The position numbers and the translations under genes were made by a program. Positions 4,931-50,600 of a stretch of DNA of 64,000 bases are shown piece by piece; positions within the stretch are counted from its first letter, which is position 1, and each line of letters opens with the position of its first letter. Where the stretch lies: assembly GCA_963710985.1 (NCBI GenBank), contig CAVQCI010000003.1, positions 1,026,096-1,090,095 of the forward strand, written 5' to 3'. The notes under the pieces were generated by a model. That model had not been told where the DNA came from and did no database searches. It saw only the letters and a list, made by a program, of their open reading frames with translations. The stretch is from an uncultured Actinomycetes bacterium (GTDB lineage: Bacteria; Actinomycetota; UBA4738; HRBIN12).

Positions 4931-7456
4931 TCACTCCGGCAGGCGGAGGCGTTTGAGCAGCAGCGCGTTGACGGCCACGAGCAGGCTCGACCCAGACATA
5001 GAGATCGCTGCGATCTCGGGGCGAAGGACGAGCCCGAAAGCGGGCTCGAAGACCCCGGCGGCGATCGGGAGCGCCACGGAGTTGTAGCCGATCGCCCAGC
5101 CGAGGTTCTGTCTCATCTTCCGAACGGTTCCCCTGCCGATGTCCAAAGCGATGGGCACGTCGAGCGGATCCGACCGCATCAAGACAACGTCAGCCGTCTC
5201 GATCGCGACATCGGTTCCGGCCCCGATCGCGATACCGAGATCCGCTCGCGCCAATGCTGGCGCGTCGTTGACGCCATCCCCGACCATAGCCACCCTTCGA
5301 CCTCCCTCCTGCAGGGCGTCTACCTGGTCGGCCTTGTCTCCGGGAAGGACCTCGGCGATGACCGTCTGCACCCCGAGCTCGTGGGCGATCCTCTCCGCGG
5401 TCGCTTGGTTGTCGCCCGTGAGCATCACCACTTCGATGCCGGCGTCCTTGAGCGCGGCGACGGCAGCCACCGACGTGTCCCGAGGGGCGTCGGCGATCCC
5501 GATGATCGCCGAGGCGACACCGTCGATGGCGACGCAGACGACCGTCCGTCCGCTGGAGGCGAGCTCCTCGCGTCGCTGCGCGAGTGGACCGAGTGATACG
5601 GCCTGCTGCTCCATGAGCCTGAGGTTCCCGACGGCCACGCGCCGGCCGTCGACGACGGCAAGCGCACCCTGACCTGGAACGTTCTCGAACGCCTCCGCGC
5701 GAGGGTTGTTCCTGCCGTCCAACTTCTCGGCGGCGAACGAAACGACGGCTTGCGCGAGGGGGTGCTCGGACTCGGTCTCGACGGCGGCGACGAGCGAAGG
5801 ACTTCGATCTTCGACATGCCGTCGACCACGAAGTCGGTAACCTCGGGCTCGCCCTTCGTCAAGGTGCCCGTCTTGTCCATCACGACGACGTCGATGGACG
5901 CAGCCGTCTCGAGCGCGATCGCGTTCTTGAACAAGATCCCGCGTTGGGCGCCCAGGCCCGTTCCGACCATGATCGCGGTGGGTGTCGCGAGCCCGAGGGC
6001 GTCGGGACACGTGATCACGACCACGGTGATCGCGAAGAGCATCGCCGTCGCGAAGTCCTTCCCGGCGAGCATCCACGCCACGAGGGTGAGGGCCCCGCCG
6101 ATCAGCGCGACGAAGACGAGCCAGAACGCAGCCCGGTCGGCCAGACGCTGGCCAGGTGCCTTCGAGTTCTGCGCTTCCTGGACCAGCTTCACGATCTGGG
6201 CGAGCGCCGTATCCGCTCCGACCTTCGTGGCCCGAACTCGGAGGGTGCCGTTCTCGTTGATCGTCGCACCGATCACTTCTGACCCGGGACCCTTCGAGAC
6301 CGGAAGGCTCTCACCCGTTACGACGGATTCGTCGACCTCGCTCTGACCTTCCTCGACGGTCCCGTCGACACCGATCTTGTCCCCGGGTCGCACGAGCATG
6401 AGGTCGCCGACCACCAAGTCTGCTGTGGGGATCTTGACCGAGACCCCGTCGCGGATCACCGTCGCCTTCGGAGGGGCGAGGTCGAGGAGCGTTCTGATCG
6501 CGTCGTTCGCCCCACCGCGGGCCCTCATCTCGAACCAGTGACCGAGGAGGACGAACGCGGCCAGCACCGACGCCGCTTCGTAGAACGTGTCACCTCCTCC
6601 GGTGAGCGTGACGCCCAGCGAATACAGCCAGCCGGCACCGATCGCGACCGCGACGAGGACCATCATGTCGAGCGTGCGGGCGCGAAGGGCGCGGACGGCC
6701 CCGTCGAAGAAGATCCACGACGAGTAGAAGACGACCGGAAGACTGAGCAGCAGCAGCCACACATCGTCTCGAAGGCCGAACGGCGCCGGCGCCGAGAAGT
6801 GAAGGACGTCCCGTCCGATGGGGGACCACAGGAGGATCGGGACGGACAGTATCGCGGCCACCAAGAAGCGGTTGCGCATGTCGCGCACCATCGCCTCCAT
6901 CGACGTGCCCGCGTGGCCGCCGTGGCCCATCATGTCGTGGGAAGAGGGCAGCGTCCTCTCGGCGGGCATCTCGTGGCCGGCGTTGATCCACGGGCATCGC
7001 GTGATCGCCGTGATCCACCGGCATCTCGTGCCCCGGGTGTTCCGTCTCCATCTCCTCATGCGTCTCGTGGCTGGCAGGCTCCGCATGCGTCGCGTGCCCC
7101 GCATGTCCGGGGGCGACGACCGTGGCGACATCCACCGGGTCCGGTTCGGACATGGCGTCGCAGATGTGGTGGGGTACCGATTGGCCGGCACAGTGGTAGC
7201 GGCACTCCTCGACCCACCGACGGAGCTCGGCGATCGACGTCGTGCCGGTGTCGTACGTCACGGTTGCCGTCTGCGACACGGGGTTCGCTTCCACGCGCTC
7301 GACCCCTGGTCGGCGTGCGAGGGCGCGTTCGACAACTACCTTCTCGCTCGCGAAGTTCAGACCCCAGACCTGAAGGACTACCGTCGCGAGCTTGCGGTCC
7401 CCGTTCTGATGCTCGCTCCCCACCAAGCTTGGGCCCACGTGGGCTGCGTGGTCCAT
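4931..7456 (-). pseudogene. P1B-type heavy-metal (copper-type) translocating ATPase, interrupted by two apparent frameshifts
   Basis: Three ORF pieces join into one ATPase. The N-terminus has a degenerate HMA domain, CRYHCAG and a His/Met-rich tract. The core has TGES, DKTGTLT, SEHPLA, GDGVNDAPAL and a TM6 motif that reads CPD. Frame changes lie near 6975-6995 and 5791-5794; restoring one nt at the latter gives the canonical [18 protein letters not shown]. Confidence 0.85.
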
Positions 7457-8894: not shown

Positions 8895-9356
8895 TCATGC
8901 GTGGGGCGACGTCGCGAAGAGGATCGGGCAGACAAGGAACGCCGCTCGGCACAAAGGCGAGCAGAACTTGTAACTCTCGCCATCCCAACGAGTAGTAAGC
9001 GGACGCTGGTTGGTGATCGGCATCCCACAGATGGGGTCGAATAGACCCAGCGTGCCGGGCCGATCGCCGAAGATGTAGTCCATCTCCTCTCGCCAGCGGT
9101 ACCGCTCGCGATCTCCTTCGACTTCCACATCCGTTATGCCTTGCTCCGCGAATCGCGACAAGACCGCCTCGGCCTCGCCGAGGCTAAGGTGACGATCTCT
9201 CGCGAGGTCCTCGGCAGAAACGGACTTCCTCTCGCCACCGACAAGCGCAAGGTAAGCGGACCGCTCTGCGGCCGTCCCTAGATGCGCTCTCGCGAACTGG
9301 GTCCAGGGGTCATAACGCTCAGTGATCGTTCCTGTGCTCGCTCCACTCGTTCCCAT
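8895..9356 (-). CDS. YHS (TRASH-type) domain protein with helical N-terminal domain
   Basis: C-terminus FDPICGMPI...YKFCSPLCRAAF is a YHS/TRASH metal-binding motif. The gene is divergent from the lgt-ccmF ORF. Confidence 0.7.
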   Translation of the reverse strand: MGTSGASTGTITERYDPWTQFARAHLGTAAERSAYLALVGGERKSVSAEDLARDRHLSLGEAEAVLSRFAEQGITDVEVEGDRERYRWREEMDYIFGDRPGTLGLFDPICGMPITNQRPLTTRWDGESYKFCSPLCRAAFLVCPILFATSPHA

Positions 9357-9553: not shown

Positions 9554-12409
9554 ATGGTGAGCGCCATCTCATGGCCGGTGGTGACGGAGCTCCACTTCGG
9601 ACCGATCCCGATCCGGCCGCACGGCATCCTGATCGCCGTTGGCTTCATCGCCGGCGGGCTCGTGATGCGCCGTTCGACTAGGCGCGCAGGGATCTCCGAC
9701 GACGATCTGTGGCGCGTCCTCGAGTGGGGGCTCATGGGCGGCGTGATCGGGATGCGCATGGCGTGGGACCTCGGACACATCCGCGACATGCACTCGATCG
9801 TCGATTACGTCGCCGTCTGGAACGGCGGGATGAGTCTGCTCGGCGGACTGATCGGGGCGGTCGTCCTGGGCGGAGCCGTTGCACGCCGCGCAGGGCTGCC
9901 GCCGCTCCCGATGCTCGATATGGCCGCGGCTGGGCTCGCGCTGGGGATCGCGATCGGGCGCCTGAGCGATCTGATCATCGGCGACCATCTCGGGAAGCCG
10001 ACCTCCCTGCCGTGGGGCTTCTCCTATCAAGGCGGGATGCATCCGCTCGCAGGCGTGCCGGCTATGGGCACGGTCGTCCATCCGGTCGCGCTCTACGACC
10101 TGCTGCTCACGACAGTGCTCTTCATCGTCCTTCTGAGGTTCGCGCGTCGGCCGCGCGCGGTGGGCTCCGCGATCGCACTCTTCGTCCTCTGGTACGGGGG
10201 GAGTCGGATCCTCACAGACTTCCTGCGGACCGATCCCCGCCGGATCCTCGGTCTCACCGGGAGCCAACTCACCGCGATCGTCCTGGTCGCGGTCGTAGTG
10301 GTCGCGCTGCTCGTGCGTGCCCGCGGCTCACGTTCCACCCCTCGTCTCGCACCGCTCCCTCGGCGGGGCGCCGACCGAGAGCGCCGCCGTCGGGGAGGAG
10401 GCCTCTGTATGAACACCATCGGCAGGTACGCGCTGCTCCTCGCGCTCGCGTGCACGACGAGCAGCGCCGTGCTCGGCTACATCGGCGGCCGACGGCGACG
10501 GCCCTCGGCGACCCGCGCCGCCGAAGGGGGGCTGCGCGCCTCTGCGCTCCTGCTATCTGTCGCAGGGTTCGCCCTCTTCTACGCGCTCGTCACACGCGAC
10601 TTCTCGCTCGAGTACGTCGCCTCGTACACGAGCCGGGACCTTTCGCTCTTCTACACGCTCGGCGCGTTCTGGGCGGGACAGGCCGGATCGCTCCTCCTGT
10701 GGGCCTGGGTGCTCGCGATCTATGCGGCGGTGGTCGTCCGGCAGAACCGGACGCGCAACCGGGACCTGATGCCCTGGGTCGTGACGGTGATCGCGACCGT
10801 GCTGGCCTTCTTCACGTTCCTCGTCGTGTTCCTTTCGAACCCGTTCAACACGGTGGCTGCCGTGCCGCCCGACGGGCAGGGGTTGAATCCGTTGTTGCAG
10901 AACTACGGGCAGTGGATCCACCCGGTCACGCTCTACATGGGATACGTCGGGTTCGCGGTGCCGTTCGCGTTCGCGGTGGCGGCGCTCGCGACGGGCAATG
11001 TCGGCGACACCTGGATCCGCACCGTGCGCAAGTGGTCCCTGTGGGCGTGGCTCCTGCTCACGGTCGGGATCATGTTCGGAGCCCGCTGGGCATACGTCGA
11101 GCTCGGCTGGGGTGGCTTCTGGGGCTGGGACCCGGTCGAGAACGCGAGCCTGCTGCCGTGGCTCACCGGAACCGCGTACCTGCACTCGGTGATGATCCAA
11201 GAGAAACGCGGGATGTTGAAGGTCTGGAACGTCTTCCTGATCACCGCGACGTTCGCACTCTCGATCTTCGGCACGTTCCTGACGCGGTCCGGCGTCGTGT
11301 CGTCGGTCCACGCCTTCTCCGAGTCGAGCATCGGCCCGTTCCTGATCCTGGCGGTGGCCACTGTGGTCGTCGGGATGGGAACGCTGATCATCTGGCGGCT
11401 CCCGCTCCTGCAGGGCGAGCACCGGATCGACGCCGTCGTCTCGCGCGAAACGTCGTTCCTCGTGAACAACCTCCTGCTGCTCGGGATGGCGTTCACGGTG
11501 TTCTGGGGCACCATGTTCCCGCTCGTCGCGGAGGCCGTCCGCGGCGTGAAGGTGTCCGTCGGCGGTCCCTTCTTCGAGGCGTTGATGACGCCTCTCGCCG
11601 TTGGCCTGCTCGTGCTCGCCGGCGTCTGTCCGCTGCTCGCATGGCGGAAGGCGACGGGGAGGAACCTGCGTCGTAACTTCACAGGCCCAGCGATCGCCGG
11701 CGCGGTGGGGTGGGCTGTGCTCCTCGCGTGGTCCCGGGCGCAGCACCTGGGAGCCGACGCGATCGTCGCCCTGTCGATCTTCGTCATGGCGACGATCGTG
11801 CAGGAGTTCTGGCGCGGGACGCGAGCGCGTCGGACGACGCGGGGCGAGGGCTGGGGGCGCTCCTTCATCAACCTGTTCTCGCGCAACCCGCGCCGCTACG
11901 GCGGGTACGTGATCCACCTCGGGATCGTGATCCTGTTGACCGGCGTCGCGATCAACGCCTCGTACAAGGTGGAGTCGCGCCTCGCCGGCGTGGCGGTCGG
12001 GCAGTCCTCGACGGTGGGTGGCTACACGGTGACCCTGCGATCGCTCAGGACCGAGACGACGGCGACGCGACAGACGATCGTCGGGACCTTCAGTCTCCGC
12101 GACCCGAGCGGGCGCGACCTGGGGACCGTCGACGCGGAGAAGTCGTTCTATCCCAACCAGGATCAGCCGGCGACGGAGGTCGGGATCCGCTCCACGCCGT
12201 GGGCCGATCTCTACATCATCCTGTCGGACCCCGATCCGGCGCGTCAGATCGCGGCCGTCTCGTACCTCGTGAACCCCGGCATGTATTGGATCTGGCTGGG
12301 GGCGCTGATCGTCGTGATCGGCGGCGTGATCGTCGGGTGGCCCAGCACGCGACGCCCGGAGACGAAGGAGGTGCCCGATGCGGCGGAGTTCGCGCGGGCC
12401 GAGGCGTAG
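9554..12409 (+). CDS. ccmF: Single 951-aa ORF: Lgt (prolipoprotein diacylglyceryl transferase) domain fused in frame to CcmF-type heme lyase
   Basis: Residues 1-270 carry Lgt motifs (HGILIAVGF, GGMSLLGGLIG, IGRLSDLIIGDHLGKPTSLPWGF, HPVALYD). From the ATG at 10409 (preceded by GGGGAGGAGG) the protein is CcmF, with WGGFWGWDPVENASLLPWL. There is no in-frame stop between the two parts. Confidence 0.8.
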   Translation: MVSAISWPVVTELHFGPIPIRPHGILIAVGFIAGGLVMRRSTRRAGISDDDLWRVLEWGLMGGVIGMRMAWDLGHIRDMHSIVDYVAVWNGGMSLLGGLIGAVVLGGAVARRAGLPPLPMLDMAAAGLALGIAIGRLSDLIIGDHLGKPTSLPWGFSYQGGMHPLAGVPAMGTVVHPVALYDLLLTTVLFIVLLRFARRPRAVGSAIALFVLWYGGSRILTDFLRTDPRRILGLTGSQLTAIVLVAVVVVALLVRARGSRSTPRLAPLPRRGADRERRRRGGGLCMNTIGRYALLLALACTTSSAVLGYIGGRRRRPSATRAAEGGLRASALLLSVAGFALFYALVTRDFSLEYVASYTSRDLSLFYTLGAFWAGQAGSLLLWAWVLAIYAAVVVRQNRTRNRDLMPWVVTVIATVLAFFTFLVVFLSNPFNTVAAVPPDGQGLNPLLQNYGQWIHPVTLYMGYVGFAVPFAFAVAALATGNVGDTWIRTVRKWSLWAWLLLTVGIMFGARWAYVELGWGGFWGWDPVENASLLPWLTGTAYLHSVMIQEKRGMLKVWNVFLITATFALSIFGTFLTRSGVVSSVHAFSESSIGPFLILAVATVVVGMGTLIIWRLPLLQGEHRIDAVVSRETSFLVNNLLLLGMAFTVFWGTMFPLVAEAVRGVKVSVGGPFFEALMTPLAVGLLVLAGVCPLLAWRKATGRNLRRNFTGPAIAGAVGWAVLLAWSRAQHLGADAIVALSIFVMATIVQEFWRGTRARRTTRGEGWGRSFINLFSRNPRRYGGYVIHLGIVILLTGVAINASYKVESRLAGVAVGQSSTVGGYTVTLRSLRTETTATRQTIVGTFSLRDPSGRDLGTVDAEKSFYPNQDQPATEVGIRSTPWADLYIILSDPDPARQIAAVSYLVNPGMYWIWLGALIVVIGGVIVGWPSTRRPETKEVPDAAEFARAEA

Positions 12410-12977
12410 GTATAGCCGGGTGGCTTCGGGGATCGCCGCCGCGGCGCTGGTCGGCGCCGTCGCCGCGATCGTCGTGTTCGGTGCGTTCCCGCACGTAGCG
12501 ATGGCGGGGACGATGTACGACGTCGCCCAGGTGTCGACCGCGCCGAGCATGGCTCCCCACGACGCCCAGGAGATCCCGGTCAGCGACGGGCTCAAGCGTG
12601 TGCTGCAGGGGCTCTTGTGCCAGTGCGGCTGCAACCTGGACGCCTACGGTTGCCAGCAGACGATGACCTGCAAGGTCTCGAGCGCGATGTGGCGTCAGGC
12701 CGCGCGGATGGTCGATCGCGACGGGAAGACGCCGACGGAGGCGCTGCAGTTGTTCGCCGCCGACTACGGCGAGTACGTCCTGGCCTCGCCAACGAAGGAG
12801 GGCTTCAACCTGACCGTGTGGGTTCTGCCGTTCGTCGCACTCCTGGTCGGAGGTGTGGTACTCGCCTTCGCTTTGCGCGGGTGGCGTCGCACGCCGCGAC
12901 CGATCGAGGCCGAAGCCCCAACCCTGGATCCCGCCCTCCGGGACCGGATCGAGCGTGAGCTGTTCGAGGAGGACTAG
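12378..12977 (+). CDS. ccmH: CcmH/NrfF-like cytochrome c biogenesis protein
   Basis: GAAGGAGG lies 6 nt before the ATG. The Cys motif LLCQCGC is followed by MWRQAARMVDRDGKTPTEALQLFAADYGEYVL and a C-terminal TM helix, matching CcmH architecture. Confidence 0.75.
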   Translation: MRRSSRGPRRRYSRVASGIAAAALVGAVAAIVVFGAFPHVAMAGTMYDVAQVSTAPSMAPHDAQEIPVSDGLKRVLQGLLCQCGCNLDAYGCQQTMTCKVSSAMWRQAARMVDRDGKTPTEALQLFAADYGEYVLASPTKEGFNLTVWVLPFVALLVGGVVLAFALRGWRRTPRPIEAEAPTLDPALRDRIERELFEED

Positions 12978-13442
12978 ATGCTGCTCGTAACGATCGTCTC
13001 GTTCGCGCTGTTCATAGCCGCGGTGACGATGATCGCAGCGCCGCTGTTGCGCCCCGACCCTGCAGATGTCCCCGATGAAGGCGACGACTTGTCTCCACGA
13101 CGGCAGCGCCTGCTCACGGACATCCGTGAGCTCGACCATGATCTGGCGACCGGCAAGCTCGACACCATCGATCACGAACGATTCCGGGCGACCGCCCTCG
13201 CCGAGCTCGCGAGCACGATCGAGGCGATGGATCAAGCCGGTCCGCCGATAGATGACGCTCGCGAGCCCGACGGCGAGGCGTTCGATGTTGATGCCTGGCT
13301 CGAATCCAAGATCGCCGAACGCAGGCAGACGCTGCAAGCCTCGCCCTGTTGCCCGGAGTGTGAGGCTCCGCGCGACCCGGGCGACGCGTTCTGCCGCCGG
13401 TGCGGCGCTCCCGCGTTCGCACGCGCGACGAAGGTGACGTAG
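12978..13442 (+). CDS. CcmI-like N-terminal module with C-terminal zinc ribbon
   Basis: The ATG directly follows the ccmH stop. An N-terminal TM helix is followed by RRQRLLTDIRELDHDLATGKLD (like the CcmI N-domain). The C-terminus is CPECEAPRDPGDAFCRRCG. Confidence 0.55.
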   Translation: MLLVTIVSFALFIAAVTMIAAPLLRPDPADVPDEGDDLSPRRQRLLTDIRELDHDLATGKLDTIDHERFRATALAELASTIEAMDQAGPPIDDAREPDGEAFDVDAWLESKIAERRQTLQASPCCPECEAPRDPGDAFCRRCGAPAFARATKVT

Positions 13443-15090: not shown

Positions 15091-15159
15091 GAATCCGATG
15101 ACACGATCCTGGAACGAGGGTGGCGTACCCTGCCTTCGATGAGGATGGGTGTCTGAACC

Positions 15160-15861
15160 TTGGGCGCGGCGACGATCCTCGTGGTCGACGACGAGCAGAA
15201 GATCCGCGACACCGTCCGGCAGTACCTCGAGCACGACGGGTACTCGGTGCTGGTCGCGGACAGTGGTCAGCGCGCGCTCGAGATCTTCGCTCGCTCGGAG
15301 CCGGACCTGATCGTCTTGGATCTGATGCTGCCCGATCTGTCGGGGCAGGAGGTGGCCCGCGCTATCCGCGAGTTGGCGCCGACGCCCATCATCATGCTGA
15401 CCGCGAAGTCGACCGAGGACGACCGCGTACAGGGCCTGAAGCTCGGTGCTGACGACTACCTCGTGAAGCCGTTCTCGCCGCGCGAGCTGATGGCACGCAT
15501 CGAAGCGGTTCTGCGACGAACGTCGAACCACGGCGATCGGCCGGGGGCGATGTCGTTCGAAGGTGGCAAGCTCTCGATCGATCGCGAGGCGCGCGAGGTG
15601 ACCGTGGAGGGGGAGTTCGTGGAGCTCACCCGGAGCGAGTTCGACCTCCTCCTCGCCCTCGCGTCGCGGCCCGGTCGCGTGTTCTCTCGGTACGAGCTCG
15701 TCACGCGCGTCCAGGGTTACGACTACGAAGGCTATGAGCGCACGATCGATGCGCACGTGAAGAACGTCCGACGGAAGCTGCGCGATGACCCGAAGCACCC
15801 TCGCTACCTGGTCACCGTGACCGGCGTCGGCTACAAGCTCGGCGTGAAAGCCGATGGGTAG
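15160..15861 (+). CDS. OmpR-family response regulator
   Basis: Receiver motifs ILVVDDE, DLIVLDLMLPD and LTAK, followed by a winged-helix output domain (TVTGVGYKL). Confidence 0.9.
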   Translation: MGAATILVVDDEQKIRDTVRQYLEHDGYSVLVADSGQRALEIFARSEPDLIVLDLMLPDLSGQEVARAIRELAPTPIIMLTAKSTEDDRVQGLKLGADDYLVKPFSPRELMARIEAVLRRTSNHGDRPGAMSFEGGKLSIDREAREVTVEGEFVELTRSEFDLLLALASRPGRVFSRYELVTRVQGYDYEGYERTIDAHVKNVRRKLRDDPKHPRYLVTVTGVGYKLGVKADG

Positions 15862-17248
15862 GTCCTACCGGCTCCGGCTGGTCGCGGCCTTCGCCGGCGT
15901 CGGGATAGGGGCGGCGGCCCTGACCGCTCTGCTCGTGAACGCTGCCTTCAGTCCGAGGTTCGACCTGTACGTCCAGCAGCAGCGGCAGGTCCACGAGCAG
16001 CAGATGCAGGCGGCGCTGGCTGATTCCTACGCGAAGATGGGCGGATGGAACACCGCTGACCTCAACGGACTCGCCCCGTTGGCGTTGATGGACGGTGGGA
16101 CGCTCCGGCTCCTCGACGCGCAAGGGCGACAGGTGTGGGACGCGTCCGCCGGTCCAGGCTCGCGACTCGCTCAGATGCAGCACACGATGAGTGGGGGATC
16201 GACGCTCGGGCCTGAGGACCGGGTGCCGGTCACGGTCGGCCACAACACAGTCGGTACCGCCGTGATCAGGTTCCCGGTGTCCGGGCTGCTTCCGCAGGAC
16301 CAAGCGTTCCGCGCGTCGGTGAACCGGCTGCTCGTCCTCGGTGGCATCGCCGCCGCCGTGTTCGCCGTGATCGCCGGAGCCGTCCTCGCTCGTCGGGCCG
16401 TGCGTCCCGCCCTGGAACTGACCGAGGTCGCGAGGTCCGTCGCCGCCGGTGACCGGTCTCTTCGTGTGGTCCCCGACGCGACCGAGGAGTTCGCGGCGAT
16501 GGCGCGCGCGTTCAACCAGATGGCGGACACGGTCGCCGAGGAAGACGAGCTTCGCCGAACGTTCGCGGCCGACGTCGCCCATGAACTCCGTACCCCGCTG
16601 GCGGTCTTGCTCAGCCAGGTCGAAGGGATGCAGGACGGCGTGATCGGCGCCGACCCCGTTGCGCTTTCTTCGCTGCACGAGGAGACGCTCCGCATCGGGC
16701 GGCTGGTCGCCGACCTCGAGACCCTCGCGTCCGCCGACGCCGCCGGCTTCACCCTCGCACCCGTGCAAACCGACCTCGACGTCCTCCTCGGGGACGTCGC
16801 CGCCGAGTTCGCCGGCCTCGCGGATGCGCGCAACGTCGCGATCACCGTCGATACGGAGCCCCTTAGCCTCGTCCTCGACCCGAGTCGCATCAAGCAGGTG
16901 GTCGCCAACCTCGTCTCGAACGCGGTGAAGTTCACACCGGAGGGCGGCGCCGTCTCGCTATGGCTTCGCCGCGAGGGGGACGAGGCGTGCGTCGCTGTTA
17001 CCGACACGGGTCCGGGCATCCCCGAGGATGAGCTGCCCCATGTCTTCGAGCGGTTCTTCCGTGGACGCGATGTGCGCGCAGGTGGTTCCGGGATCGGTCT
17101 GAGCGTCGCGCGTGAGTTGGTAGTGGCGCACCACGGCTCGCTCAGCGTCACGAGCCGCGCCGGCCAGGGCGCTCGATTCGAGATGAGGCTGCCGGTGAGT
17201 ACGCCCGTCGCGGCGACCACGGCGCAGACGTCCGACCGCTCGAGCTGA
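15854..17248 (+). CDS. Sensor histidine kinase (TM, HAMP, HisKA, HATPase_c)
   Basis: H-box FAADVAHELRTPLAV, N-box NLVSNAVKFTP and G-boxes DTGPGI and GSGIGLSVA. Overlaps the response regulator stop. Confidence 0.9.
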   Translation: MGRSYRLRLVAAFAGVGIGAAALTALLVNAAFSPRFDLYVQQQRQVHEQQMQAALADSYAKMGGWNTADLNGLAPLALMDGGTLRLLDAQGRQVWDASAGPGSRLAQMQHTMSGGSTLGPEDRVPVTVGHNTVGTAVIRFPVSGLLPQDQAFRASVNRLLVLGGIAAAVFAVIAGAVLARRAVRPALELTEVARSVAAGDRSLRVVPDATEEFAAMARAFNQMADTVAEEDELRRTFAADVAHELRTPLAVLLSQVEGMQDGVIGADPVALSSLHEETLRIGRLVADLETLASADAAGFTLAPVQTDLDVLLGDVAAEFAGLADARNVAITVDTEPLSLVLDPSRIKQVVANLVSNAVKFTPEGGAVSLWLRREGDEACVAVTDTGPGIPEDELPHVFERFFRGRDVRAGGSGIGLSVARELVVAHHGSLSVTSRAGQGARFEMRLPVSTPVAATTAQTSDRSS

Positions 17249-17342
17249 CGGTTCCATCGCCGCGAAGGTCGCGTCGTTCGCGCACAGGCCCTTCACGGCG
17301 CGTTCACACGCTTGTCCGAAGTTGCATGGCGGAAGGTACGCC

Positions 17343-17699
17343 ATGAAGACCCGGACGCTGGTGATCGCAGGAACGCTCGCGGCGACGGTCCTCGTCTTGC
17401 TCGTCGTGCTCGGCTGGCCGAGGCCGGCGACCGAGACGCAACCACCTGCGGGATCGATCTCTGCACCCGAAGCCCAGTTGATCTGGTATGCGATGCAGTG
17501 GCACGACTCCGCAGTGAGCTCTGGCGACCGCGGAGGTGCGGCGACGCCGTGTCGTCTCCACCGGCTCGGGCTCAACGTGACGACCACCCTCCACCGAACC
17601 ATCCCTTCTCTCTCTGAGCTGGGCCCGGCGCGGCTGAGTGGCCACACCCGGTTCCAGACAGGGTGGGAGGCAGTGCCGAGCGAAAGGGCCGAGAGATGA
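17343..17699 (+). CDS. Small membrane-anchored hypothetical protein
   Basis: GGAAGG lies 8 nt before the ATG. N-terminal anchor is MKTRTLVIAGTLAATVLVLLVVL. The stop overlaps the next start (ATGA at 17696-17699). Confidence 0.45.
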   Translation: MKTRTLVIAGTLAATVLVLLVVLGWPRPATETQPPAGSISAPEAQLIWYAMQWHDSAVSSGDRGGAATPCRLHRLGLNVTTTLHRTIPSLSELGPARLSGHTRFQTGWEAVPSERAER

Positions 17700-18355
17700 C
17701 ATCGCGAACGGCATCGCACGCGACCGACCATCGCGCGAACCACAAGACCGCCGCCATCCGCAAGGCCGAGCGTCGCCGCGCGGCGGAGCGTCGAGCGGCG
17801 CGCAAGCGTGCGCTGCAGATCACGGGTGCGATCGTCGTCGTCGCCGCGCTCGGGTACCTCGCGACGCGGAGCTCGTCGGGGGAGAAGGCTCCGCCGGTCT
17901 CGCTGGCAGGTATCCGAGCGGTGTCGAACACCGAGTTCCCGGCGAGCGACGGCAAGTCGGTGACCCTGTCGCAGTTCGCGGGAAGCCCCCTCGTCCTCTA
18001 CTTCTACGAAGGGCAGTCCTGCGGCGCGTGTCAGACGCAATTGGCCGACATCCAGAAGGAGTTCCCGCAACTCCAGGCGACTGGTGCGCACGTGCTGGGC
18101 GTCACGACGGACCCCGTTGACGTCTCGGCCTCGGTCGCGTCGCAGCTCGGGCTCTCGTATCCGATCGTCGAGGACGTCGATCACCAACTCGGTTCGGCGA
18201 TGGGAACGTTCGAGGCGAGTGGCCACATGGGCCCGGCAGACCAGCACTCCGTCGTCGTGCTGGGCGCCGACGGATCCGTCGCGTGGCGCCAACTCGCGGG
18301 GACGACGATGTACGTGGCCCCGGACGCGATCTTGAGCGCCGTGAAGGGGGCATAG
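17696..18355 (+). CDS. Membrane-anchored AhpC/TSA-type redoxin
   Basis: A TM anchor is followed by a thioredoxin fold with LVLYFYEGQSCGACQTQL and VLGVTTDP. Confidence 0.75.
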   Translation: MTSRTASHATDHRANHKTAAIRKAERRRAAERRAARKRALQITGAIVVVAALGYLATRSSSGEKAPPVSLAGIRAVSNTEFPASDGKSVTLSQFAGSPLVLYFYEGQSCGACQTQLADIQKEFPQLQATGAHVLGVTTDPVDVSASVASQLGLSYPIVEDVDHQLGSAMGTFEASGHMGPADQHSVVVLGADGSVAWRQLAGTTMYVAPDAILSAVKGA

Positions 18356-18613
18356 ATGACCTCCTCACTCCGCTATCTGACGTCGCCGGACTGCCACCTG
18401 TGTGAGCGCGGGAGGGACATCGCCGAGAAGCTCGCCGACGAGGCTGGGATCGAGCTCGTCGAACTCACATGGACCGAGCCGTGGGCACGCGAGCGGATCG
18501 AGCGAGATGCCGTGGCCTTCCCCCCGGCGCTCTACCTCGAAGATAGGCTCCTCGGGTACGGCCGCCTCTCAGAGCGCCGCCTCCGCAAACTCGTGATGGC
18601 GGTGCCCGCATGA
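18356..18613 (+). CDS. Glutaredoxin-like small thioredoxin-fold protein (DUF836-like)
   Basis: 85 aa with CHLC near the N-terminus. The ATG directly follows the upstream TAG. Confidence 0.65.
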   Translation: MTSSLRYLTSPDCHLCERGRDIAEKLADEAGIELVELTWTEPWARERIERDAVAFPPALYLEDRLLGYGRLSERRLRKLVMAVPA

Positions 18614-19686
18614 ACGGGCTCGTCTACTCTGCGTCCCTCATCGCGGCGTTCCTCGGTGGCGTCCTCGCGTTGTTCGCGCCGTGCTGCGTGGTCACGCTCT
18701 TGCCGAACTTCGTTGCGACCGCGGTGCGCCGCGGCGTGCGTGCGTTGCCAGCCACGACGCTGCTCTTCTCCACGGGCTTGGCCCTCGTCCTGCTCCCGAT
18801 CGTGCTGGGCGTCGGGGCTCTCGGCCACACGATCGGGCGTTACCACGCCGCGGTCTTCACGACGATCGGCATCTTCCTGATCGCCCTCGGCACCTACATC
18901 CTGACCGGGAAGCGGTGGTCGTTGCCGCTGCCAATGATGTCGAAGCCGAGCGGCAACGGGGCCACCTCGACGTTCTTCCTCGGGACCGCTTCGGGAGTGG
19001 CCAGCTCCTGCTGTGCGCCGGTCGTCGCCGGGGTGGTCGCGATGTCTGCGCTGAGCGGGTCATGGATCGGGGCGCTCGGGCTCGGGCTCGCGTACATCTT
19101 CGGCATGGTCTTCCCGCTGCTGCTGTTCGCGATCGCGGCGGTTCGGCATGGGCAACGGTCGAACCGGCCGCTTCGGAAGGTCACGATGTTCGGGCGGGAG
19201 CTCCTCTGGACCGACGCTGTGTCGGGCTCGATGTTCGTTCTGTTCGGCGCGATCACGTTCTTCCTCGGCATCAGCGGTGAGGGAAGCGTGACGCCCGGCC
19301 CACTCGCGGTCTGGGATCGCGTCGTGACCCGCCGGTTCGCCGACCTCGCTGCCGCGCTCGGTAAGACGCCCCTCGTGCTGCAGGCCGGGTTCCTGGTGCT
19401 GCTCGCCGTCCTCGTCGCGGTCCCTCTCTGGCGCACGATGCGCGCCGACGATGGAGGTGGAACCGCGGGAGGCCGGGGTGCTCGTGGCACACGTGTGCGC
19501 ACTACGACGAACCGGGAACGCGATCCGGTGTGCGGGATGGTCGTGCTCGTCCGGCCCGACAGCTTGTCGGCAGACTGGGACGCGAAGACCTACCACTTCT
19601 GTGCGGCGGCGTGCCGCGAACGGTTCGTCGAGAGGCCCGAGGAGTTCGTGAGGCCAGCGACCGCGTCCAGTGCCTCGTCTCGTTGA
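18610..19686 (+). CDS. CcdA/DsbD-like transmembrane thiol-transfer protein fused to a C-terminal YHS domain
   Basis: Six hydrophobic helices carry FAPCCVV and SSCCAPV. The C-terminus DPVCGMVV...YHFCAAACRERF is a YHS/TRASH motif. ATGA overlap with the upstream gene. Confidence 0.8.
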   Translation: MNGLVYSASLIAAFLGGVLALFAPCCVVTLLPNFVATAVRRGVRALPATTLLFSTGLALVLLPIVLGVGALGHTIGRYHAAVFTTIGIFLIALGTYILTGKRWSLPLPMMSKPSGNGATSTFFLGTASGVASSCCAPVVAGVVAMSALSGSWIGALGLGLAYIFGMVFPLLLFAIAAVRHGQRSNRPLRKVTMFGRELLWTDAVSGSMFVLFGAITFFLGISGEGSVTPGPLAVWDRVVTRRFADLAAALGKTPLVLQAGFLVLLAVLVAVPLWRTMRADDGGGTAGGRGARGTRVRTTTNRERDPVCGMVVLVRPDSLSADWDAKTYHFCAAACRERFVERPEEFVRPATASSASSR

Positions 19687-19779
19687 GGGGCACTTTCCGC
19701 AGCTTCATCGCGACATGTCACGAGCTTCACGTGGCCTTCACACGCTGCGAGTAGCCTGGGGGTCGAAAGGAGATCACAC

Positions 19780-20031
19780 ATGATGTGGGGCAACGACTGG
19801 GGTTGGGGCGGATGGGCCCTCGGGTTCCTGATGATGCTCGTGTTCTGGGGAGGTCTCGCGGCGCTCATCGTGCTGCTGGTTCGAGGAACAGACCGCACGA
19901 GCGACCGACAGGAGCCGCGAGGCGATCCGCACGACGCGGACGCGATCCTGCGGGAGCGCCTGGCGCGCGGTGAGATCTCGGTCGAGGAGTATGAGGAGCG
20001 CAAGAAGGTGCTCCAGGACGCGGGCAGCTAG
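19780..20031 (+). CDS. SHOCT-domain small membrane protein
   Basis: AAAGGAG lies before the ATG. A Trp/Gly-rich N-terminus and TM helix are followed by LRERLARGEISVEEYEERKKVL (SHOCT). Confidence 0.8.
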   Translation: MMWGNDWGWGGWALGFLMMLVFWGGLAALIVLLVRGTDRTSDRQEPRGDPHDADAILRERLARGEISVEEYEERKKVLQDAGS

Positions 20032-49842: not shown

Positions 49843-49929
49843 CCAGACGGCGGGCGCCGGGTGACCAATCGGGATGACCTTCAAGTCCTCTGGCGTCGTG
49901 GTGATCCACGGGAGGTCGCACCGTGTGTC
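49843..49929 (+). repeat. B element (49843-49874) plus att-like hairpin (49906-49929) abutting the integrase stop
   Basis: CCAGACGGCGGGCGCCGGGTGACCAATCGGGA ... CCACGGGAGGTCGCACCGTGTGTC. The integrase TGA (49928-49930, minus strand) overlaps the motif. Confidence 0.65.
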
Positions 49930-50600
49930 ATGCAGACCTCGAGGCCCGGGTCGCGTCGGTGTGCACCAGATTCAGCCGTGAGGCTATGTAGTCGTACTGG
50001 TCGGGGAGGAGGTGCGCGTAGCGATCCATGTGATCTGGATGCTCGAGTGGCCGAGGTGGAGCTGGATCGCCTCGCGTGCACACCTTCACGGATCAGCAAG
50101 CTCGCACACGTGTGGCGCAGGTCGTGGATCCGGATGGACCGGGGGAGACCGGCCGCGTGGAGCGCAGGCCACCATCGCGCTGCCGGAAGTTCGCGATCCT
50201 GAGCGGGCCTCCTGTCGGTGCGGTGAACAGCAGGGGGTCGGGCGCGGCATCCACCCTTTCGAGGTGCGCGCGGAGCTCCCCGACGAGGAAGTCGGCGAGC
50301 CGCGTCTTGCGCACGCGGTAGGTCTTGGTCCTCCCGAACATGAGGTGACGTCGCCAGTTCTGCCCTTAGACCACCCCGAGGCCTGGTCCAGACTCCCTTT
50401 GACCTGGATGGAGACCCAAGTCAGGCCGGTCTCGGGCTTCAGCGCGCGCGCGAGGCCAGTCCGTCCGAGGAGGTCGAGCCTTGGGTCACTCCGTTACTCA
50501 CCGAGCCTGACCTGTTGTCACACGGTCGGAGGAGTGCATCCGGTCGCCGAGCTCCAGCGTATCGATGACCGCAGGCCCCTCGCCCGCGGTTGTCTGGGCG
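49928..50600 (-). mobile_element. Tyrosine recombinase (phage-integrase family) pseudogene with multiple frameshifts
   Basis: Catalytic-domain pieces lie in three frames: TGLARALKPETGLTWVSIQVKGSL, KTYRVRKTRLADFLVGELRAHL...PLLFTAPTGGPL, RIHDLRHTCASLLIREGVHA, AIQLHLGHSSIQIT and MDRYAHLLPDQYDYIASRL. Confidence 0.75.

Follow-up and report, generated by a model that had tools for sequence, protein, structure and literature searches.

An uninterrupted Lgt-CcmF reading frame probably represents two overlapping genes joined by a one-base frameshift

A 951-codon open reading frame (ORF) on the forward strand of the 64-kb stretch of DNA analyzed here (the window) runs without interruption from an ATG at 9554 to position 12409 and joins an Lgt-family prolipoprotein diacylglyceryl transferase to the heme lyase CcmF, raising the question of whether a single Lgt-CcmF protein is encoded or whether two genes have been joined by a change of reading frame. 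Pfam matches along the 951-aa product are LGT (aa 13–253), Cytochrom_C_asm (aa 373–579) and CcmF_C (aa 603–926). Between the two halves, a second ATG at 10409–10411 is in frame with the start at 9554 (10409 − 9554 = 855, or 285 codons), a Shine-Dalgarno sequence (GGGGAGGAGG, 10392–10401) lies 7 nt upstream of this ATG, and a TGA at 10410–10412 sits in the +1 frame and overlaps the ATG as ATGA. The sequence-only reading had described this ORF together with its internal ATG, Shine-Dalgarno and TGA, and the raw sequence confirms all of these positions. The junction peptide reads ..RRGGGLCMNTIGR.. in the fused frame and the +1-frame tail reads ..ESAAVGEEASV. The G+C content of the window is 66%, so that out-of-frame runs of 25–35 codons often lack a stop, and the stop-free junction is statistically unremarkable. 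With the stop and start codons overlapping as ATGA, a net gain of one nucleotide anywhere in the lgt tail necessarily brings lgt into the ccmF frame.

Both halves are recognizable members of their families. The Lgt half belongs to PF01790, with 149.2 bits (cut-off 24.9) over profile positions 4–239 of 240, and its TIGR00544 score (105.3 bits) is below the cut-off of 118.9. The Lgt proteins of loci L001 (283 aa) and L002 (282 aa) are 71–72% identical to it and have the same start and synteny. Alignment to the E. coli Lgt structure (PDB 5AZB) shows that R143, Y235 and R239 are retained and that H103, N146 and E151 are replaced by L, D and D, respectively; these are residues that we take to be functionally important in the E. 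coli enzyme. In every locus examined, this Lgt paralogue has cytochrome-c, thiol-redox and copper genes as neighbors, and because of this maturation setting, the lgt-ccmF pair may already be functionally linked. The CcmF half (ccmF, 10409–12409, forward strand, 666 aa from its own start codon) matches PF01578 at 136 bits and PF16327 at 197 bits, placing it in the CcmF/NrfE family, with a TIGR00353 score of 429 bits that falls below the 569-bit cut-off for the subfamily (CcmF versus NrfE). It carries the WWD motif WGGFWGWDPVEN at ORF aa 519, and the four conserved histidines, in its IHPV, YLHS, SVHAF and VIHLG segments, line up with those of PDB 6ZMQ. Stand-alone CcmF proteins of 670 aa that are 79% identical to it begin MT(S/G)IGRLAL, which aligns to MNTIGRYAL at the internal ATG of the window. 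The next gene of the operon, ccmH (12378–12977, forward strand; Pfam CcmH, 50 bits), overlaps the 3′ end of ccmF, as it does in L001 and L002.

Relatives of the two halves are separate proteins. The best 120 CcmF matches (identity up to 79%) are all stand-alone proteins of 603–746 aa with PF16327 and PF01578 only, covering 59–70% of the 951-aa query, which is its CcmF part; the best 120 Lgt matches (52–80% identity) are all stand-alone proteins of 191–337 aa with PF01790 only. Of 1.84 billion cluster representatives, the 150 that score best all lack an N-terminal Lgt and an N-terminal extension of ~285 aa, and in 150 of 150 the highest-scoring aligned segment starts no earlier than query aa 284. 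The fused state is absent from both sets of 120 best matches and from these 150 representatives. A literature search found no report of an Lgt-CcmF fusion, the matching papers using LGT for lateral gene transfer. Scans of the protein collection, genome contigs and metagenome contigs gave no relative above about 80% identity; the genome-contig scan with the Lgt part returned three distant loci only (28–41% identity), and the metagenome-contig scan with an Lgt alignment returned four, two of them usable (L007 and L008).

Comparison of orthologues, which the sequence-only reading had named as one means of overturning a fusion, went against the fusion: in five syntenic relatives (L001, L002, L007, L008 and L013; 73–79% identity), lgt is followed by ccmF as a separate gene, and the lgt stop is a TGA that shares bases with the ccmF start codon, ATG or GTG, in a 4-nt (A/G)TGA overlap, in the same relative position as TGA 10410–10412 of the window. 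Lgt proteins of relatives are 282–287 aa long. The lgt tails of these loci finish ..VEEAAR*, ..VEEAIR*, ..TTEVPG* or ..VDEEVAT*, and many more Lgt tails in the clade finish ..EE[AV]xx. Their lgt reads through the ccmF Shine-Dalgarno as ..V-x-E-E-x-x-x-stop, and GGAGGAGG is found 7–9 nt upstream of the ccmF start in L001, L002, L007 and L013. The +1 frame of the window reads ..AAVGEEASV*, ending at 10412, and reproduces this lgt ending.

The position at which the lgt tail leaves its frame can be bracketed from several directions. A TAG at 10296–10298 leaves the +1 frame open only from 10299; frame 0 keeps its match to the relatives' RARxSRxxP until about 10344; and the +1 frame is in codon-by-codon register with the V-x-E-E tail of the relatives from GTC 10389 on. 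The net +1-nt change is accordingly bracketed within 10299–10392 (forward strand), by the open +1 frame, tail alignment and composition. Allowing a change-point at which the frame switches from 0 to +1 raises lnL by 14.6, against a maximum gain of 4.25 in 596 control windows inside ccmF; the 2-lnL support interval is 10304–10342. By hand count, 22 of 22 +1-frame codons between ~10340 and 10405 end in G or C, compared with 14 of 22 in frame 0, and the GC3 of these genes is 0.86–0.92. Codon-position composition of the linker favors the +1 frame, not the fused one, and shows that the final ~70–100 nt ahead of 10410 evolved in the +1 frame. Deletion of any single base in 10299–10407 yields a 285-aa Lgt, and scoring every 1-nt repair by homology gave no localization of the indel, the score being flat across 10344–10389. 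The joint best estimate for the frame change is probably about 10330–10365; C4 at 10338–10341 and G4 at 10364–10367 are candidate homopolymers, the indel not being attributable to either one. In the Pfam matches and the alignments to 5AZB and 6ZMQ, Lgt shows no damage to its catalytic core and CcmF none along its entire length, with the frame change touching the unconserved tail only.

Beyond lgt, the window has at least four other frameshifts, located in two otherwise well-conserved genes by split Pfam matches and by tblastn against homologues. A CopA-like P-type ATPase on the reverse strand lies in three pieces (7423–6995, 6996–5797 and 5875–4934), with its frameshift sites at about 6995 and 5797–5812; the two main pieces are 69–80% identical to one intact homologue and the short N-terminal piece is 56% identical, and the motifs CP(D), DKTGT and GDGVNDAP are intact. 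An Amidohydro_3 gene is broken across three reading frames, its pieces matching profile positions 6–222, 233–340 and 347–422, with frameshift sites at about 51350 and 50980; it adjoins an integrase fragment. No frameshift is seen in those neighboring genes that have homologues in the comparison loci (ccmH, thioredoxin, response regulator and kinase). When all ORFs of the comparison loci were compared with the window by tblastn, the ATPase frameshift was recovered and no new one appeared, the other signals being antisense shadow ORFs. A six-hypothesis GC-frame plot over the whole window was too noisy, with poor strand discrimination, and was not relied on.

In our view, the ORF consists of two ordinary genes, lgt and ccmF, that overlap and have been joined by a net +1 nt, most likely a sequencing or assembly indel; we assign this reading a probability of roughly 0.7. 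In its ancestral extent, lgt (9554–10412, forward strand; 285 aa when repaired) would stop at TGA 10410–10412, and ccmF would be translated from its own Shine-Dalgarno and ATG 10409, coupled to lgt as in the relatives; a net +1 nt in the cytoplasmic lgt tail would shift lgt into the ccmF frame and remove its stop. The data establish the ancestral arrangement as two genes, the reading frame in which the lgt tail evolved and the additional frameshifts. Because at least four other frameshifts, which the sequence-only reading had not noticed, fall in two conserved genes of the same window, error is the most likely source of the extra base, and we infer that it is not a mutation in the organism. 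The frameshift-free neighboring genes indicate that errors are not everywhere in the window. The frameshifts in the ATPase and amidohydrolase genes could be real pseudogenes, in which case the shift in lgt could be real too. Of the two alternatives proposed from the sequence alone, a recent indel joining two translationally coupled genes is supported, and a genuine Lgt-CcmF polyprotein of the lineage is not.

The topology of the two proteins bears on what a fused product would look like. In the homologous structure, the Lgt chain begins in the periplasmic head and then crosses the membrane in seven helices, which places the Lgt C-terminus in the cytoplasm; the WxWD loop between helices VI and VII of CcmF is periplasmic, which places the CcmF N-terminus in the periplasm. 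In the fused ORF, the first CcmF transmembrane helix is preceded by a linker with 12 K+R and followed by a loop with 6 K+R (a simple Kyte-Doolittle scan, which misses several transmembrane helices, was used for these junction charge counts only). From the homologous structures and the positive-inside rule, the fused halves are predicted to be incompatible at the junction, with the first CcmF helix topologically frustrated.

A genuine recent frameshift mutation, giving an accidental 951-aa chimera that is tolerated or degraded beside normal CcmF made from its own Shine-Dalgarno and ATG, is less likely but is the main rival account. The sequence as deposited does encode the chimera, the signals for independent CcmF synthesis are intact, both functional parts are spared, and the shift is confined to the part of lgt where it would be least harmful; set against this, the additional frameshifts in conserved, otherwise functional-looking genes fit error better than five independent recent mutations, and the first CcmF helix would be frustrated in the chimera. 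If real, the mutation would have to be very young, since the lgt tail has no codon adaptation to frame 0. It is improbable, in our judgment, that the base is real and that the strain expresses such a young chimera beside normal CcmF, with the first CcmF helix on the cytoplasmic side and the protein tolerated or even functional; were it so, the locus would be a snapshot of a membrane-protein fusion born from an ATGA-overlapping gene pair.

An evolved bifunctional protein or polyprotein, in which lipoprotein lipidation and cytochrome c maturation are coupled, would account for the uninterrupted ORF; lgt-ccmF adjacency is kept in part of the clade, and the cytochrome-c, thiol-redox and copper setting of the Lgt paralogue makes a functional link plausible. 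We regard it as very improbable, as no fused homologue occurs among the 240 close cluster matches or the 150 best representatives, the five syntenic relatives have separate overlapping genes, the linker, by its composition, evolved in the other frame, the internal Shine-Dalgarno and start codon are kept, a cytoplasmic Lgt C-terminus would be joined straight to a CcmF needing a periplasmic N-terminus, and the literature search was negative. A regulatory device, in which ribosomes would undergo programmed +1 frameshifting within the lgt tail and regain the stop at TGA 10410, deserves almost no credence. The only point in its favor is that a +1 slip anywhere in 10299–10407 restores the 285-aa Lgt; it was rejected on the grounds that lgt in the relatives lies in a single frame and needs no frameshift, and that the site, in the least conserved part of lgt, has no conserved slippery or stimulatory element shared with them. 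We know of no programmed-frameshift family involving lgt.

The two-gene reading, which is supported by comparison, composition and topology, carries a caution for annotation: where genes overlap as ATGA in a high-G+C genome, one base inserted in the tail of the upstream gene is enough to create a long and apparently clean fusion ORF, and gene callers will label it a novel bifunctional protein. With at least five frameshifts in 64 kb, the assembly needs polishing, and an Lgt-CcmF architecture should not be carried into annotations on the strength of the 951-aa product. Only if the extra base is real would the locus be a modestly interesting incipient membrane-protein fusion.

Known systems provide counterparts for each half and for the arrangement as a whole. 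The Lgt half aligns over essentially the full length of E. coli Lgt (PDB 5AZB, E = 3e-20), a separate polypeptide from which it differs as a divergent paralogue that scores too low for TIGR00544 and has other residues in place of H103, N146 and E151; the CcmF half aligns over essentially the full length of T. thermophilus CcmF (PDB 6ZMQ, E = 1e-105), which is also a separate polypeptide, unlike the fused ORF. CcmF does occur within multi-domain proteins of some lineages, as in representatives of 800–1081 aa with putative C-terminal partners, but in these the match starts at or near target residue 1 and the extra length is C-terminal, none having an N-terminal Lgt. The locus resembles the artefactual or pseudo gene fusions that single-base indels create in draft or long-read assemblies: its net +1 nt lies in a G+C-rich, unconserved tail with C4 and G4 runs, and several other frameshifts in conserved genes are nearby, with error here being a likelihood. 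It also has the DNA layout of translationally coupled ATGA/GTGA pairs with a Shine-Dalgarno inside the upstream gene (GGAGGAGG 7 nt before the ATG, and an overlapping TGA). Unlike in such pairs, the upstream gene is one base out of phase with the TGA and so without a stop of its own, and it is only after a 1-nt correction of the lgt frame that the Shine-Dalgarno, ATG and TGA of the window form a coupled pair of this kind.

The region 9554–12409 (+) is one ATG-initiated ORF of 951 aa in the ORF listing, with Pfam matches to LGT (residues 13–253), Cytochrom_C_asm (373–579) and CcmF_C (603–926). NCBIfam concurs, naming Lgt and the heme lyase CcmF/NrfE family, and both halves appear to be ordinary members of their respective families. 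The raw sequence contains an ATG in frame with 9554 at 10409–10411 (+), a TGA in the +1 frame at 10410–10412 (+), and the SD GGGGAGGAGG at 10392–10401 (+); the sequence-only reading had placed the ORF and all three signals correctly. At 66% G+C for the window, it is no surprise that about 30 codons stay free of stops outside the native frame, and, because stop and start overlap as ATGA, a frameshift in the tail of the upstream gene joins the two genes in frame automatically if it goes in one of the two possible directions. We consider it probable (about 0.72) that lgt and ccmF form a translationally coupled pair of separate genes and that the 951-codon ORF results from a single spurious base in the tail of lgt, in which case CcmF would be translated from the SD and ATG of its own gene.

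Searches with the whole ORF gave CcmF matches of 603–746 aa (best, 79% identity), and all 120 listed carry PF16327 and PF01578 only and cover the CcmF part alone (59–70% of the query). The 120 matches listed for the Lgt part (191–337 aa, 52–80% identity) all carry PF01790 only. An exhaustive HMMER pass covered 1.84 billion cluster representatives, and in every one of the best 150 the best-scoring matched stretch starts at query residue 284 or later, while an N-terminal Lgt is present in none of these 150. Among them, targets longer than about 700 aa are matched from at or near their N-terminus, so that their extra length is C-terminal. A literature search on fusion of CcmF with lgt found nothing relevant. 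The orthologue check by BLASTP or HMMER proposed in the sequence-only reading thus finds lgt and ccmF separate, not fused, in the relatives listed.

Contigs were fetched for the closest CcmF and Lgt proteins, and five of these loci (L001, L002, L007, L008 and L013) share the order Glrx-like gene (minus strand), lgt, ccmF, ccmH, with an lgt of 282–287 aa in the three for which a length was called (L001, L002 and L013) and a ccmF of about 670 aa; lgt is not paired with ccmF in L011, L014 and L016. The lgt-ccmF-ccmH order is also found in the window, with a YHS-domain gene upstream where the relatives have the Glrx-like gene. In all five loci lgt terminates at (A/G)TGA, the first three bases of which are the ccmF start codon. 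The ccmF SD GGAGGAGG sits within the lgt tail, where it is translated as Glu-Glu. The tails read ..VEEAAR* (L001 and L002), ..VEEAIR* (L007), ..TTEVPG* (L008) and ..VDEEVAT* (L013), and an ..EE[AV]xx ending recurs in many further Lgt proteins of the clade. The window reads ..RRRRGGGLC-M before the CcmF Met in frame 0, that of the fused ORF, and ..AAVGEEASV*, ending at 10412, in the +1 frame, which from GTC 10389 onward is a codon-for-codon, indel-free match to GTC GAC GAG GAG GTC GCG ACG TGA of L013. The ccmF starts are orthologous (MNTIGRYALLLAL in the window, MT(S/G)IGRLAL(I/L/V)LAL in the relatives), and in a DNA alignment the window carries a net +1 nt compared with L002, located in the unconserved lgt tail. 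An orthologous lgt tail ending at a TGA that overlaps the ccmF start, which the sequence-only reading had taken as the mark of an indel between two ordinary genes, is therefore what five syntenic relatives display.

Because a TAG interrupts the +1 frame at 10296–10298, the shift can lie no earlier than 10299, and homology of the +1 frame to the L013 tail from 10389 onward places it before that point. Frame 0 still matches the RARxSRxxP of the relatives to about 10344. Composition by codon position supplies an independent signal: the lgt core has a GC of 0.70/0.48/0.86 at positions 1/2/3 and ccmF has 0.62/0.50/0.92, and over 10335–10409 the GC maximum (0.90–0.95) shifts to the phase occupied by third positions of the +1 frame; by hand count, between about 10340 and 10405 all 22 codons of the +1 frame finish with G or C, versus 14 of 22 in frame 0. 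A change-point likelihood model from frame 0 to +1 gains 14.6 lnL (support interval 10304–10342), against a largest gain of 4.25 lnL over 596 control windows inside ccmF. Changing to +2 instead still yields a gain of 10.7 lnL, so the signal is partly just that frame 0 is not coding-like there; +1 is the best-scoring frame and the sole one with homology support. Scoring every possible 1-nt repair against the tails of 81 relatives excluded sites before about 10330 and gave a level score over 10344–10389. With all lines taken together, the site is best estimated at about 10330–10365, within which fall a C4 run (10338–10341) and a G4 run (10364–10367), and Lgt is 285 aa after any 1-nt repair.

Two further genes of the window are split. 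A CopA-like P-type ATPase (4934–7423, minus strand) lies in three consecutive pieces in alternating frames, 7423–6995 (N-terminal; frame -1), 6996–5797 (frame -2) and 5875–4934 (frame -1), which are 56%, 80% and 69% identical, respectively, to one intact homologue, the ATPase adjoining the same Lgt paralogue in L014. The breaks fall near 6995 and 5797–5812, the CP(D), DKTGT and GDGVNDAP catalytic motifs are undamaged, and the gene looks otherwise functional apart from two apparent frameshifts. On the minus strand, from 52198 to about 50500, profile positions 6–222, 233–340 and 347–422 of an Amidohydro_3 gene fall in three different frames. The gene thus appears to carry at least two frameshifts, although degradation of a mobile region could be involved besides sequence error. 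A weak phage-integrase fragment (49884–50420, minus strand) adjoins the gene. No comparable splits were found in genes near lgt with homologues in the fetched loci.

The window Lgt (9554–10412) scores 105 bits against the TIGR00544 equivalog, below the cut-off of 118.9, and has replacements at E. coli H103, N146 and E151; it appears to be a divergent paralogue. In several relatives (L001, L002, L013, L014 and L016) this paralogue lies among copper, thiol-redox and cytochrome-c maturation genes (Glrx-like, AhpC/TSA redoxins, YHS, HMA/P-type ATPases, cupredoxin and CcmF/H); its substrates may be a dedicated set of maturation lipoproteins. Directly upstream of the window lgt and divergent from it, 8895–9356 (minus strand) encodes a protein of 153 aa that carries a YHS domain at its C-terminus; L001, L002 and L013 have the Glrx-like gene at this position. 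Between ccmH and a thioredoxin-like gene, 12978–13442 (+) encodes a conserved 154-aa protein whose sole match is a weak zinc-ribbon at its C-terminus, and L001 and L002 have a 153-aa gene with no recorded Pfam family at the equivalent position. A two-component plus redox module at 15157–20031 (+) comprises a response regulator (15157–15861), a histidine kinase (15848–17248), an AhpC/TSA redoxin (17618–18355), a DsbD_TM-like membrane protein with a C-terminal YHS/TRASH domain (18547–19686) and a SHOCT-domain protein (19687–20031), all on the plus strand; modules of the same kind lie beside the Lgt paralogue in L011, L012 and L013.

Since the lgt tail is without adaptation to frame 0, the event is either very recent or non-biological. 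A genuine young frameshift mutation, with read-through yielding some Lgt-CcmF chimera beside normal CcmF, is possible but rather unlikely: five frameshifts in 64 kb, in genes otherwise undamaged, form the pattern of an indel-prone assembly, which would be a likelier source than independent recent mutations. Under the preferred reading of coupled genes joined by a spurious base, the assembly is in need of polishing. Programmed frameshifting has no support at all and is the least credible explanation.

The genuine polyprotein offered as the other option in the sequence-only reading, an evolved bifunctional Lgt-CcmF fusion, is highly improbable, failing every test applied: conservation (none fused among the 120 CcmF and 120 Lgt matches listed and the best 150 representatives), linker frame, topology and retention of the internal start. 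The topology argument draws on homologous structures and the positive-inside rule. In E. coli Lgt, an N-terminal strand that is part of the periplasmic head domain is followed by seven TM helices, which would leave the C-terminus cytoplasmic, and the cytoplasmic face is strongly positive; the WxWD loop of CcmF, between helices VI and VII, is periplasmic, which would place the CcmF N-terminus in the periplasm. The first CcmF TM helix of the fused ORF (residues 293–311) is preceded by a 38-residue segment with 12 K+R and followed by a 17-residue loop with 6 K+R, and would thus be frustrated, with positive charge at either end. A chimera need not be inactive for that reason, as this helix could remain cytoplasmic. 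Its predicted topology is nonetheless unlike that expected of an adapted fusion, and annotation of the 951-codon ORF as a new architecture is not warranted.
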